From the NCBI RefSeq assembly GCF_006345805.1, contig NC_042999.1, positions 5,332,001-5,396,000 of the forward strand: a DNA stretch of 64,000 nucleotides, written 5' to 3'. Source of the DNA: Octopus sinensis. Its lineage: Eukaryota. The notes beneath the pieces are model-generated. The model saw only the letters and a list, made by a program, of their open reading frames with translations, was not told where the DNA came from and did no database searches. The position numbers were made by a program, and so were the translations under genes. This document shows, in pieces, positions 10,585 through 48,400 of this stretch; position 1 is the first letter of the stretch; each line of letters opens with the position of its first letter.

Positions 10585-10840
10585 ACAATTGACGGATATT
10601 TGTCTCTCATCTTGTTTGTTGTTAACACAACGTTTCGGCTGATATACCCTCCAGCCCTCATCAGGTGTCTTGGGGGAAATTTCGATCCTGGGTTCTGATT
10701 CCTTAGGTATTTTTCGATCTTCTTCTTCTTCTTCTTCTTCTTATTATTATTATTATTATTCAGGTCACTACCTGGAATCGAACTCGTAATCTTGGGGTTA
10801 GTAGCCTGCGCTCTTAACCACTACGCCATATGCTCATGGG
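10585..10840 (-). mobile_element. tRNA-headed SINE-like element carrying a hammerhead ribozyme
   Basis: Minus strand: tggcgtagtggttaagagcg (A box), gagttcgattcc (B box), a (TAA)/(GAA) linker, then a hammerhead core. The body is repeated at 63660-63810. Confidence 0.75.
10622..10671 (-). ncRNA. Minimal type I hammerhead ribozyme
   Basis: gacac-CUGAUGA-g-ggcug(gaggguauau)cagcc-GAAA-c-g-UU-guguu. Stems I and II and the core are intact; stem III is the palindrome ACGU. Confidence 0.8.
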
Positions 10841-27002: not shown

Positions 27003-27191
27003 TGTATGTATGTATGTATGTATGTATGTATGTGTGTGTGTGTATGTATGTATGTATGTATGAATGTATGTATGTATGTATGTATGTACGTATGAATGTA
27101 TGTATGTATGTATGTATGTATGTATGGATGTATGTATGTATGTACGTATGTATGTATGTATGTATGTATGTATGGATGTATGTATGTATGT

Positions 27192-27501
27192 ATACTCTTT
27201 TACTTGTTTCAGTCATTTGACTGTGGCCGTGCTGGAGCACCGCCTTTAGTCGAGCAAATCGACTCCAAGACTTATTCTTTGTAAGCCTAGTACTTATTCT
27301 ATCGGTCGAACCACTAAGTTACAGGGACCTAAACACACCAACATCGGTTGTCAAGTGATGTTGGGGAGACAAACACGGACACACAAACATACACACACAC
27401 ACATACATATATATACATATACACGACGGGCTTCTTTCAGTTTCCGTCTACCAAATCCACTCACGAGATTGTAGTCGGCCCGAGGCTATGGCAGAAGACA
27501 C
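27192..27501 (-). mobile_element. SINE family A, truncated at the retrozyme-like element
   Basis: Tail and body are present; the head is missing at the 27502 junction. Confidence 0.8.
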
Positions 27502-27507
27502 TATGGT

Positions 27508-27950
27508 AGGAGACGTCGAAGTTTCCTAGGGCTAAATAGCGGTGGTGTAATTCCTTTACGGGACTGTCACATTGAGTTGACAGTATACAACCACGATATC
27601 GCTCCACTACCGCTCATGTCTCTCTAAGACATTTAGAAATTCAATATTTCTAATTTCGGTGATCAGTAAATAAATTTTACTGAAAATATGATATATTTGC
27701 GAAGAGGTTGCAGTCATCTCAGCGAGCGAGGCAGGCTACCCTGAACTGACGACGAGCAATAGACTCAGAAACATATGTCTTCAGGTGCTTAGTCCCAGCT
27801 GGCGGGGTGATTGCTTGCCTCCCCTTTGCAAATATAAGGACACGGAAAATGTGTCAAAGCCGACAGGAGACGTCGATGTTTCCTAGGGTTAAATGGCGGT
27901 GGTGTAATTCCCTTACGGGACTGTCACACTGAGTTGACAGTATACGACCA
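27508..27950 (+). mobile_element. Retrozyme-like element: 357-nt unit plus 86-bp terminal redundancy
   Basis: 27508-27593 repeats at 27865-27950, with an internal type I hammerhead in a long stem. Confidence 0.75.
27740..27785 (+). ncRNA. Type I hammerhead ribozyme
   Basis: ccugaa-CUGACGA-c-gag(caauaga)cuc-a-GAAA-cauaug-UC-uucagg. Stem I is 6 bp, stem III is palindromic, and the GUC cleavage site follows 27779. Confidence 0.85.
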
Positions 27951-27964
27951 ATATATATATATAT

Positions 27965-28178
27965 TTCACTCTTATACTCTTATACTTGTTTCAGTTATTT
28001 GACTGCGGCCATGCTGGAGCACCGCCTTTGGTAGAGCAAATCGATCCCGGGACTTATTCTTTGTAAGCCCAGTACTTATTCTATCGGTCTCCTTTGCCGA
28101 ACCGCTAAGTGACGGGGACGTAAACACACCAGCACCGGTTGTCAAGCAATGCTAGAGGGACAAACACAGACACACAAA

Positions 28179-28263
<85 letters not shown>

Positions 28264-28426
28264 GACAGGCTTCTTTCAGTTTCCGTCTACCAAATCCACT
28301 TACAAGGCATTGGTCGGCCCGAGGCTATAGCAGAAAACACTTGCCCAAGATGCCACGCAGTGGGACTGAACCCGGAACCATGTGGTTGGTAGGCAAGCTA
28401 CTTACCACACAGTCACTCCTGCGCCT
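27965..28426 (-). mobile_element. SINE family A, full length
   Basis: Complete head, internal (TA)/(TG) microsatellite and CR1-like tail. Confidence 0.88.
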
Positions 28427-28659
28427 ATATTTTATTTATTTATTTACATACACAAATAAATAAATTCCATTTGGTTTTGACCTTGGCATTTGCTTTATTA
28501 AGCCCGTCCACGGCTACCAGATACAAGTATAAAACGGAAATGGGCAGTTTTACTGATGATGTGTCTGAAAATCCGTAAATGTAGTAGAGTTAATACAAAC
28601 ATTAACAAGGAAAATGAAGTTAGCAATTCGTTTTATTAGATAATTTCATAATAAAAGCT

Positions 28660-28818
28660 TAGGCGCGGCTGTGTGGCAAGGTGTTTGTTTCCTAACCGCA
28701 TCGTTTTGGGTTCAGTTCCATTGCGTTGGACTTTGAGCAATCGTCTTCTTCTATAGTTTCAAGGCAACCAACGACTTGTGAGTGGATTTGGCGGACAGAA
28801 ACTGAAAGAAGCTCATAT

Positions 28819-28871
<53 letters not shown>

Positions 28872-29032
28872 TATATATAGCTTGTTTACCAACCACATGG
28901 TTCCGGGTTCAGTCCCACTACATGGCACCTTAGGCAAGTGTCTTCTACTATAGCCTTGGGCCGACCAAAGCCTTGTGAGTGGATTTGGTAGACGGAAACT
29001 GAAAGAAGCCCGTCGTATATATATATAATATA

Positions 29033-29080
<48 letters not shown>

Positions 29081-29560
29081 TGCGTGTGTGCGTGTGTGTT
29101 TGTCCCCCCAACATCGCTTGACAACTGATGCTGGTGTGTTTACGTCCCCGTCACTTAGCGGTTCGGCAAGAGGGATCGATAGAATAAGTAATAGGCTTAC
29201 AAAGAATAAGTCCTGGGGTCGATTTGCTCGACTAAAGGCGGTGCTCCAGCATAGCCGCAGTCAAATGGCTGAGTCAAATAAAAGAATAAGAGAATAAAAT
29301 ATATATATATTTTTTTTATGTGTGTGTATGAGAGAGAGAGAGAGAGAGAGAGATTTTGTCTGTTTGTCCTTCGCCAAAGCTTGACAACCGGTATTGGTGT
29401 GTTTAAGTCTCTGCCACCGAGCTGTTCGTGAAAAGGAACCGATAGAGTAAGTACCAGGCTTAATGAAAAGTACTGAGGTCGTGTCATTCGACTAAAGATT
29501 CTTCATAGCGGTGCCACAGCATGGCCACATTGTAACAACCGAAACACGTAAACAGTAAAA
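28660..29560 (+). mobile_element. Cluster of SINE family A copies
   Basis: Partial head at 28660-28815, near-complete copy at 28878-29295, degraded tail copy at 29350-29560. Confidence 0.8.
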
Positions 29561-42975: not shown

Positions 42976-43043
<68 letters not shown>

Positions 43044-43086
43044 GATAAATATCAAAGTGAGTTATATACAGTAGCGGTAACACATC

Positions 43087-43319
43087 GTGACGTATTTTTG
43101 CCATTTCAATATGGCTAACCCCTAAGGGTGGATGCTACTGTAGTTTTTAGCCCCAGGAGGACACACTCCTCCAGCTGGCCATAGACACACTATCTGTGTC
43201 CTGTGTCAGGACACAGATAGTGTGTCTATGGCCAGCTGGAGGAGTGTGTCCTCCTGGGGCTAAAAACTACAGTAGCATCCACCCTTAGGGGTTAGCCATA
43301 TTGAAATGGCAAAAATACG

Positions 43320-43323
<4 letters not shown>
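43087..43323. repeat. Perfect palindrome, 117-bp arms, 3-nt loop
   Basis: 43087-43203 is the reverse complement of 43207-43323; flanked by (TA)n. Confidence 0.95.
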
Positions 43324-43412
<89 letters not shown>

Positions 43413-45467: not shown

Positions 45468-48400
45468 GTGTGTTTTTATTGGCTAAACTGGCATATGACC
45501 ATTCCGAAATATAACAATATCTGTTTCAACACACGACTTCACATAAAAAATCTTGCACAACAAATATTTAAACGTACTAACGTGAGCCACAGCCAGGCTT
45601 GCAAGATGCTGAAGAACACTATATTTTGTTGCCTAAAGAAAACTGTGACAACGCAACAGCTTCGTTTTATAAAACAATGTGTCTCGTCCAGGATATGTAT
45701 CAACAAGGTCACAGCCAACGTTAAACGGCTTGACCTCACTAACGGACAAGCGGAAAGACTAAAAAGGACGCTAATGGTAAATATTAGAAATAGAATATAC
45801 AGAGAGCTGAGCGAACAAGAGAAGCGTAAACGTATATTTTTAAAAGAAATTAAAAGTATCACCACACGAAAGGAGAAAACCTTAATAATGGATATAATAT
45901 ATGAAGAAAACAGACATGTAATACACCAATGCAATATCCATTTTAAGAGGAAGTTATCGTGGTTGAAACAGAAACGTCAATATGAGCTCGCAAAGGAAGA
46001 AAAGCAGAAGTATCCAGATACAATAAATGGAATTATTATGGAAGATGTGCTACTACCAGAAGAGTTCAATAGAGACAATGAAGCGAACATCTATGGGGGA
46101 GTAACAACGGACCCAGATGAAATATCGATACTTCAACTACCACCAAAGTATGCAGTTATAGTAAAGTGAATACCATCAAATGCCTGTCCGAGATTGAAAA
46201 GTCGTTCACAAAAATACGTTGGAATTTAAATAGATACTATGACAACAACACTTGCGACAACAACAACAACGCGAAAAACACTAACCGCAGCAACAACAAC
46301 ACAAACAATAATGACCGCAACAATAACAACCGTAGCAACAAAAGCAACACGAACCCTAACAGCGGCAACAACAACAACAACACGAACCCTAACAGCGACA
46401 ACAACAATAACAATAGAAAAAATGTATGCATAGACACAAACAATAGATACAAAAACAAAAACACAAACAGAGAGAGAAAAATCGTATACAACAGCAACAA
46501 CAACAACAATTATAGGGAGAACCGACACACAAACACACACACAGATAGCCATAGTCACAAAGACACGAATAAAAGTTGTGTCATAGGGGTCACGATGGAG
46601 AATAAAGTTGAATGCAACAGGATCCTTGGACAGGGAGTCAGCGGACTTGAAACAGATAACAATACTCATAGGAACAAAAATAACGACCGCAACAGGGGAT
46701 TGACAGGGACCAACAGACAGACATAAAACCCAACACTAATATAAACAACACATATACCAGAAACAGGAACAATGAATATATCACTAGCGATGATAGTAAT
46801 AATGGCAATAGTAGGAATAAAGGTAATAACAATAATAGTGGTAGTAGTAGTGGTGATGGTAACAGTAGAAGTAGTAATGAGGATAGTAGTGATATTGTGG
46901 TGGTAATAGGAATACTAGTAGTAGTAGTAGTGGTAATGGTGATAATAATAATAGGAAGGCTGATGTTGGAAACAGTAACGATAATGAAGATAACCCTAGA
47001 GAGACCATTGACATGTATACCCATCCCTTTGACACTCAATTCTTCAACGTATGCGACAAAACTTACTGCATGAACCGAATTTATCCAACAACATTACCCT
47101 TCAACAAAAGGGTATACATCCCAAGACGTACTAATGACCACATGGAAGCACAGTTCACTATAGCTAGGACCAAACTTAGACAGATTTTAGGTTTATACAT
47201 TAAGAGACAGAGACAGAATAAGACAGATGCCCAACAACTAGGGATTAAACCTGCATGTGGCCTACAGAAGCTCATTCAGCGCACGAGGAACGGAGAGGTG
47301 ATATGCCTTCCCACGGATAAGTCCGGCAGGATGTCAATAGACAGCTTACCGAACTACATCCAGGCAATGCAACCTCATATCGCCAATACAAAAGTAACAA
47401 CTGTACAGGCGCATGAGGAGAGAGAAAAGGTCCTCAATGCCCACATGATGATGTGGACAATTGTTCTGGGACCTCAGAAACGTACTGCAAAGAATTTCCA
47501 AGCCTGGAACAATGATATCCCGGCACTGTATGGACTTCGCAAGGACCGTAAAGGTTTTACTGACCCTATAGCAGGACCACCAACAAGACCAGTCTGTGGA
47601 GCGAATATCGCTAGCAATTACAGAATCTCCTACTTCCTCTCAATGATCATACGCCCTATAATCAGGATGTCACCTGATGTATGTGACAGCACAGAAGATC
47701 TCCTAAGCAGGATCAGTGACTGTAACAAAACTTGTGACTTGACAGGATGTATAGTAGGTAGCATGGATGTGGTATCCCTATACCCATCGATTGACGTAGA
47801 TTTTGCAGTGGAGAAGTGCGTGGAGATGATCAACGAGAGCCAGGTGGAGTTCTGTAATGTCGACACAGAAGAACTGGGCCTCCTACTTAGACTGACATAT
47901 AATAGTGAATACTTAGATAAACAAATCTTAGTAGTTTCTGCCCCAGTAGATGTTTAAGAGGTAGACCGCCTACAATTACTTCTATGGCTAGGAAGACACA
48001 TATAGAAAGATGGCGCGGATGGACCAGAGCCATACGGAGCCCCGCAAATGTCCATCGGGTAAAGAAAATGATCGCACATGCACTAGGAGCTAGTATAAGA
48101 GTTACCCTAAAAGGCCACACATTTAAATTTAATAATAAAATATATGCCCAGGACGAGGGGGCAGCCATCGGTGTTAGTATCGCTGGTGATGTGGCCAACC
48201 TCTTCATGGTATGGTGGGACAGAAGGCTTAAAGAATGCCTACTGCAGTAATCCATACTCGTAAACATGTACTCTCGCTATGTTGATGATATCAATATAGT
48301 AGTAAGGCACCCCCACAAGAGAGTAATGTTGATATAGTAATAGAAACTAATACTATGGAGAGCATCCAGCAAATAGCTAACTCCATCCACCAGAGTATTA

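Follow-up and report, generated by a model that had tools for sequence, protein, structure and literature searches.

The non-LTR retrozymes described in animals (coral, Mytilus 350–390 nt, axolotl 330/350 nt; PMC7229834) are non-coding units with a canonical type I hammerhead, a short palindromic helix III and a stable self-paired fold, and they occur in thousands of copies in genomes that also hold Penelope-like elements (PLEs). Their cleavage has been demonstrated, and the animal units yield circles (PMC7229834). For vertebrates, the link to PLEs was drawn from co-occurrence and from pseudo-LTR similarity (24/57 Xenopus families), in a sample described without any mollusc and with a monomer share ranging from 0 to 1 (Li, Clavereau, Pollet 2026). 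Vertebrate retrozymes were argued to be non-autonomous PLE derivatives, and eight of nine Xenopus retrozyme dimers did not cleave in vitro (bioRxiv 10.64898/2026.07.22.740005). In the giant squid, 235 Rfam hammerheads were counted and, in that account, not described further (PMC6962438).

Poseidon is a PLE from Anolis whose purified protein, a predicted dimer, cleaves the two strands of its target and extends each of them; the tail of the element is set by two internal start sites, and the uncleaved RNA serves as the main template (Frangieh 2024, PMC11167929). PLE insertions include partial tandems and an inverted 5'-truncated copy, prefer (TA)n and carry the tail on one of the inverted repeats (PMC8557442, PMC3846280), so that a "tail on one end" is already in print for PLEs in qualitative form. 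The definitions of canonical and minimal hammerheads come from PMC4209133.

We analyzed a window of 64,000 nt from Octopus sinensis (NC_042999.1, positions 5,332,001 to 5,396,000), in which a hammerhead-bearing element had been predicted to be a Penelope-mobilized retrozyme. The analysis upheld that prediction: the element has many copies, a conserved core, no ORF and the insertion signature of PLEs, and compensatory stems appear in three families. In our preferred reading, to which we assign a probability of roughly two in three, the window copy belongs to a 354-nt non-coding hammerhead family (family A) that is likely mobilized in trans by a PLE, from one RNA, probably a monomeric circle, with two internal start sites.

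By the features testable in sequence, family A and its two sister families B and C classify as metazoan non-LTR retrozymes, with a tandem organization that is weak in A and circles that are predicted. With units of 352–365 nt, they share the listed features of the retrozymes in PMC7229834, from the canonical type I hammerhead to the presence of PLEs in the genome. Unlike those retrozymes, family A occurs not in arrays but as scattered partial laps of up to 1.7 units; circles and cleavage were demonstrated there and are predictions for families A–C, and two fixed start sites with paired inverted arms are not among the features that PMC7229834 was found to describe. The vertebrate retrozymes are likewise non-autonomous, carry a hammerhead and share their genomes with PLEs (cf. 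Li et al. 2026); what ties the present families to PLEs is the way they are inserted, the loci compared having yielded no pseudo-LTR that resembles them. With Poseidon and other PLEs (PMC11167929, PMC8557442, PMC3846280) they share two internal start sites downstream of the hammerhead, a tail at one end, AT-rich targets, partial tandems and an inverted 5'-truncated copy, and the PLE target duplications of 8–10 bp are a further likeness. They differ from PLEs in having no ORF, a tail of 43–56 nt against 30–40 and a canonical instead of a minimal ribozyme and, compared with the PLE reports as far as these go, in counts and haplotypes that tie both arms to one template. Our literature searches turned up neither a description of the three families nor a count of site pairing; supplements and repeat databases may hold them.

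The family A copy in the window

The insertion spans 27508 to about 27955 on the plus strand, as do the parts listed below, and is a 5'-truncated single arm of 449 nt (1.26 units) whose 3' end is start site 1. The direct repeat with a period of 357 was confirmed, at a length of 92 nt instead of the 86 bp reported originally and with 91% identity. Its first copy (27508–27599) would be the second lap of the cDNA, and its second (27865–27956) ends at site 1 and runs into the (TA)n target at the 3' junction (27953–27965, strand not assigned). The spacing of 357 nt holds for this copy, which has a private 3-nt insertion near 27808–27812; the period of the family is 354 nt. No target duplication was found at the window copy. 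An abundant microsatellite-bearing host repeat occurs in several copies and in both orientations at 27191–27502, 27973–28420 and 28650–29500, the leftmost being cut off where the 5' end of the element starts.

Within the copy, a G/C-rich stem pairs 27538–27547 with 27604–27613; its 3' side lies just past start site 1, and the stem is also present in families B and C. An internal copy of start site 1 (27598–27599, unit position 91–92) marks where 94 of the 201 family-A arms have their 3' end (unit positions 86–93), and start site 2 (27654–27656) does so for 82. The two sites bound the 56-nt "tail" (27600–27656), which contains two small hairpins. Further downstream, a rod at 27692–27836 carries the hammerhead at its tip, and its 3' foot (~27808–27837) is a hot spot of 5' truncation.

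The type I hammerhead motif (27740–27785) is present as first described, with a palindromic stem III, a GUC site and a 6-bp stem I; as read from the letters, CUGANGA, GAAA and NUH stand in type I order with helices I–III. Stem I pairs 27740–27745 with 27780–27785 and is followed by the core CUGACGA (27746–27752), a stem II of 3 bp and a C.A pair (27753–27767), GAAA (27768–27771) and the palindromic, 2-bp stem III (27771–27778), with the predicted cut after C27779. A UAC bulge of helix I (loop 1, 27737–27739) is also kept in family B. The C.A pair had been tentatively put down to CpG decay in this copy, an explanation that fails for a pair found family-wide: among 92 intact motifs, the pair closing stem II was C.A in 60, U-A in 27, C-G in three and otherwise in two. 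A C.A pair in this place may impair cleavage, and one axolotl family also has a mismatch at the helix II base (PMC7229834). Stem III was an 8-nt palindrome in 83 of the 92 motifs and a 6-nt palindrome in five.

The 357-nt window unit folded with z = –6.7, and none of 100 shuffles was equally stable. Folded as a circle, the check proposed with the original prediction, the unit had 66% of its bases paired, in several hairpins and one rod of ~145 nt. The predicted rod therefore stands for 27692–27836 in the minimum-energy fold, and the description of the whole unit as rod-like does not, since the unit consists of branched hairpins. Constraining the window unit to form the active hammerhead within its circular fold cost 3.0 kcal/mol; over the retrozyme units tested, the fold z-scores were –6.7 and –7.4 and the costs 1.6–6.3 kcal/mol. 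The models thus predict a stable self-paired fold that leaves the hammerhead free to form. Release of a circle by the window copy itself is not supported: having one cut site, it cannot release a monomer via double cleavage. The lack of an ORF noted originally agrees with the absence of any ATG-started ORF of more than 51 aa from a 598-nt family-A copy.

None of the listed sources that contain the element was recorded as RNA. Contigs covering 27300–28100 in three runs guessed to be RNA and in one of unknown kind with a second organism label all contain the element. Between the start-site region and the ribozyme their depth drops sharply, alike in all four runs, as genomic truncation would give; such contigs show neither ends, strand nor level, and they have no bearing either way on circles. 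Elsewhere in the window, weak reverse transcriptase matches at 47586–48301 (E about 5e-5) likely mark a decayed retroelement. A fourth hammerhead-like motif recurs in an unrelated repeat at 10664 and 63753 (both minus strand) and also at loci L275 and L288; it has a CUGAUGA core, a long stem II and a short palindromic stem III, and is possibly a minimal PLE-type ribozyme.

Three hammerhead families and a probable Penelope-like partner

Searches of the 2.72-Gb genome gave 2575 family-A candidates with the whole stretch as query, 2043–2120 with its 3' part and 479 with the rod; these totals are first-look candidates, with 40 scored per search, and not copy numbers. The genome-wide comparison suggested with the original prediction thus placed the element in a dispersed family of ~2,000–2,600 search candidates, and the single genomic copy that would have counted against it was not what we saw. 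The exact 18-nt ribozyme pattern of family A occurred 115 times, against none for the control, and the first 100 of the 115 matches listed included two same-strand pairs one unit apart and no longer run.

From 203 retrieved loci we assembled a set of 141 non-redundant ones, picked for their similarity to one or another part of the unit and with long copies over-represented. The usual unit was 354 nt, non-coding and dispersed. Divergence from the column majority had a median of 2.3% outside CpG and polymorphic columns (133 copies) and of 8.3% at CpG columns; the hammerhead core letters were conserved in 27–30 of 30 copies. Two cores intact by pattern were present in one of the 141 loci. The longest copy measured 598 nt (1.7 units), and no longer family-A array was found among the loci analyzed. 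In the helix I extension, of which several variants exist, native strands paired at –5.93 kcal/mol versus –5.26 ± 0.15 kcal/mol for swapped ones (0 of 2000 shuffles), a figure that is not a strict probability, as related copies share variants. Most pairwise r2 values among alleles were below 0.2, away from one linked block. Family A, with its alternative alleles unchanged, also occurs under a second organism label (run X8), and the polymorphisms may predate a species split.

Family B was traced from a diverged match beside an unrelated hammerhead (L147). Its 365-nt unit is 68% identical to that of A, with 1498–1988 candidates and 272 exact ribozyme 18-mers, and its copies are 94–99% alike. We had considered B as an older relative of A and rejected the idea, B being the younger; family C is likewise younger than A. 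The 352-nt unit of family C (1832 candidates) is 54% identical to A and B, and its start sites are 43 nt apart. The window contains one two-armed family C insertion within a (TA)n run (43041–43326), in which a 162-nt arm from site 2 (minus strand) stands head-to-head with a 119-nt arm from site 1; neither arm reaches the ribozyme. At another locus (L127, G000:C8:18815500-18822500), a (TA)n/(GA)n run separates an intact 775-aa PLE frame from a family C copy, which stands ~900 nt upstream of that frame and in the opposite orientation; the two are probably independent insertions into one microsatellite.

In families A, B and C, the 6-bp stem I and helix II are kept with different sequences, and the hairpin order is constant. 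The hammerhead helices are thus backed by compensatory change across the three families; a five-row alignment that was misregistered in loop II was left out of the pair counts. We used the three-family comparison in place of a single-family RNAalifold consensus. For 40 natural units, RNAalifold gave a covariation term of –0.2 and did not recover the hammerhead, because the copies are too alike and decayed; the expected covariation was thus poor within one family and emerged as compensatory stems between the three. The proposed scan with the Rfam hammerhead models was also divided in outcome: the window copy had no hammerhead match even at E ≤ 10 and the family B copy had none, and the family C copy matched Hammerhead_1 (RF00163) weakly, with E 0.002 and 22.1 bits against a gathering cut-off of 34.

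The genome has 5029 candidate GIY-YIG frames, and intact PLE frames of 775–883 aa match GIY-YIG and RVT_1, the latter just under its cut-off. In one young PLE family, the 3' ends fall at two sites ~35 nt apart and run into (TA)n (10, 6 and 1 other; 17 copies). The young PLE family (L123:136–4980, L126 and L129), with copies 98–99% alike, has a 479-aa frame upstream of a 781-aa RT/GIY-YIG frame, a second ORF that is unusual against PLEs described as single-ORF, as well as a long repeat-rich 3' region and a variant hammerhead core of U3-A8 type. We compared 70 loci, drawn from the 5029 GIY-YIG candidates and 65 Rfam matches, with units A and B: among these PLE and hammerhead loci, two intact PLE families included, no nucleotide likeness was found except the family B copy in L147, and the best other matches were AT-rich with E ≥ 4e-4. 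We infer a PLE partner from the insertion signature and name no specific element. The loci L131–L160 represent other hammerhead families, the largest of which has an extra A after the core, an internal repeat and 200–900 nt of shared flank. Two hammerhead copies lie 431 nt apart at L136/L137, and L138, L147 and L154 carry a ~65-nt insertion in loop II.

Paired arms, laps and the template

The ends of the insertions are of PLE type. Arms of family A ended at unit position 86–93 (site 1, 94 arms) or 143–155 (site 2, 82 arms) in 176 of 201 cases, the two sites lying 56 nt apart, and their 5' ends were variable. (TA)n started 56 of 127 family-A 3' flanks, the first 10 nt of which were 88% A+T versus 63% for the loci. 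Of the 36 two-armed insertions not located in (TA)n, 24 had a repeat of 7–15 nt on either side, and (TA)n stood on both sides in 21 of 57 two-armed insertions; the target duplications are of the longer kind, with no LTR-type 4-bp duplication, as in retrozymes. The insertions therefore combine two 3' ends that define a tail, a tail on one inverted arm, AT-rich or (TA)n targets, 5' truncation and a partial tandem plus inverted structure.

A second arm in head-to-head orientation was present in 58 family-A loci. Where both outer ends fell on a site, 41 insertions joined site 1 to site 2, one had site 1 twice and one site 2 twice; removal of the probable duplicates L003/L007 and L184/L198 left 39 mixed pairs. 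An arm lay off both sites in 15 of the 58, and some of these are ordinary inversions (e.g. L010). In one family-A insertion with an 11-nt flanking repeat (L004:507–2001), the two arms are split by 853 nt of other sequence, which is a later insertion or captured DNA. Among 52 family-B loci (sites 55 nt apart, arms up to 925 nt), 34 were two-armed, with 27 mixed pairs, no same-site pair and seven with an arm outside the site windows. The 26 family-C loci included 13 two-armed insertions, of which nine were mixed (eight without one duplicate), one was a 2+2 pair and three had an arm off site; the longest family-C arm was 1136 nt, and arms reached up to 3.2 units. With duplicates removed, the three families gave 74 mixed against 3 same-site pairs, and mixed pairing, scored as 75 of 78, departed from one half with P = 2.6e-19.

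Both arms also tended to carry the same alleles. At 15 polymorphic non-CpG columns, the arms of family-A insertions agreed in haplotype in 106 of 112 cells versus 0.53 expected. Agreement between successive laps was 42/54 versus 0.53 expected, weaker than in family B, where arms agreed in 197 of 202 cells (0.64 expected) and laps in 162 of 167 (0.60 expected). There were 25 haplotypes among 40 fully typed family-B copies, each nearly uniform across laps. Concordance was weaker in family C (40/51 and 39/48), with one of its six columns at a junction. Independent priming of two RNAs would give about half same-site pairs; the 3 of 77 seen, together with the shared haplotypes, point to one RNA primed twice. 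The single-haplotype multi-lap arms, the many haplotypes and the few long parents point to a circular template. Laps of different haplotypes were seen in two long copies, L008 (0/4) and L010 (5/9), and such mixed laps, taken with the low linkage, point to occasional template switching.

Of 46 arms sampled irrespective of the ribozyme, 19 continued past the cut site, one ended at it and 26 ended before reaching it. We had considered that reverse transcription stops at a cleavage end and rejected the idea, with one arm in 46 stopping at the cut site and with the six site-1 arms that end next to it all extending at least over the base that precedes the cut. Of 174 5' ends, 34 fell in a 30-nt stretch at the rod's 3' foot, a hot spot which suggests that the rod was folded in the template. 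The originally proposed reverse transcription around a circle is thus supported indirectly, by multi-lap arms of a single haplotype and by read-through of the cut site, and the circle itself is a prediction.

We propose that a rare locus with two cut sites would be transcribed and would self-cleave to a monomer, which a host ligase would close into a circle. A PLE protein, plausibly a dimer, would bind the hairpin cluster around the tail and nick both strands of an AT-rich target ~8–12 bp apart. The two nicked strands would prime at different sites, one at site 1 and its partner at site 2, and would be extended in the same direction round the RNA. Extension would often stall at the rod foot and sometimes pass the cut site for more than one lap. 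The two cDNA ends would then be joined head to head, often via a few matching bases, or one arm would be lost, as may have happened to the window copy; template switches would now and then reshuffle alleles. Ribozyme cleavage, ligation and expression in families A–C are presumed in this scheme by analogy with described systems.

A narrower version, in which a dimeric PLE protein holds a single ribozyme-made circle and primes one target strand per fixed site for up to three laps, is tentative, and we put its chances somewhat short of even. If true, it would explain in one step how retrozyme arrays arise and why PLE insertions show a tail, head-to-head inversions and partial tandems. Counting against the main proposal are the three same-site two-armed insertions, the off-site arms in 15 of 58 family-A cases, the weaker lap concordance in families A and C, the C.A pair with its possible effect on cleavage, the Xenopus dimers that did not cleave and the single family-A locus with two intact cores; in the anole PLE, moreover, start-site use was the same on both target strands and the template was mainly uncleaved RNA (PMC11167929).

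Alternative explanations and significance

The same PLE enzyme could have copied a linear, uncleaved RNA transcribed from a tandem locus, with the hammerhead dispensable and no circle involved. For the anole PLE, uncleaved RNA is the dominant template and insertion persisted with ribozyme mutants (PMC11167929). Arms that pass the cut site are equally compatible with uncleaved RNA, the mixed laps in L008 and L010 fit a linear template, and in family B the haplotype of some multi-lap copies recurs in a longer locus (L316 for L309 and L327). Long parents of this kind are nevertheless scarce. No family-A array exceeded 598 nt, the first 100 of the 115 hammerhead matches held only the two same-strand pairs mentioned above, two or more cut sites were present in 8 of 86 family-B arms, and no long arrays of families A, B or C were seen among the loci analyzed; the 25 haplotypes in 40 family-B copies would need many long parents, none of which was seen. 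Linear copying alone would, moreover, be expected to shorten copies in every round, and the compensatory stems indicate that the ribozyme fold has been selected, at odds with a dispensable ribozyme. We therefore regard a linear template as unlikely. The families could also be 5'-truncated ends, or pseudo-LTRs, of an autonomous Penelope-like element, whose insertion signature they have and whose pseudo-LTRs carry type I hammerheads (PMC4209133). What lies upstream of the unit is the retrozyme unit again in 58/174 arms, those longer than a unit; the unit has no ORF with RT and GIY-YIG, and the ribozyme is of canonical and not of minimal PLE form. PLE protein matches near copies are isolated fragments, and a common upstream flank was absent in 80 family-A and 18 family-B single-armed loci, bar matches of 29–61 nt and one duplicate pair. 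These observations largely refute the pseudo-LTR origin, which we consider very improbable.

The families might instead be traces left in the genome by a viroid-like RNA circle that replicates autonomously and is occasionally integrated by PLE enzymes. Such an origin would account for alleles that are freely reshuffled while pairing is kept, as in an RNA population under structural selection, and the circles of mussels are heterogeneous and reported without a database match (PMC7229834). Template switching by the reverse transcriptase accounts for the mosaics as well, however, and the hammerhead is in plus polarity only, with thousands of DNA copies; the minus strand folds less well than the plus strand (–101 versus –122 kcal/mol), and a 25-nt ribozyme pattern had no matches in viral and metagenome contigs. 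We rate this origin as more improbable still. Local tandem duplication or a chance fold within a SINE-rich region could be entertained for a copy that sits among microsatellites and an abundant host repeat and whose hammerhead Rfam does not call, and is refuted by thousands of dispersed copies, fixed 3' ends and three families with compensatory stems, leaving it a negligible chance. A PLE-mobilized retrozyme copied from one RNA, probably a circle, is the reading we retain.

Animal retrozymes are already known, and the case for their dependence on PLEs has so far been built on co-occurrence and sequence similarity. In the present families the PLE signature is carried by the insertions themselves, and the short polymorphic unit makes each insertion the record of one reaction, in which the two arms almost never share a site and nearly always share one haplotype. 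The question of a circular template and the origin of tail, inversion and partial tandem become testable with a 350-nt RNA. For the host, the analysis adds ~6,000 candidate insertions in three unreported families, whose main value is the mechanistic record held in those insertions.
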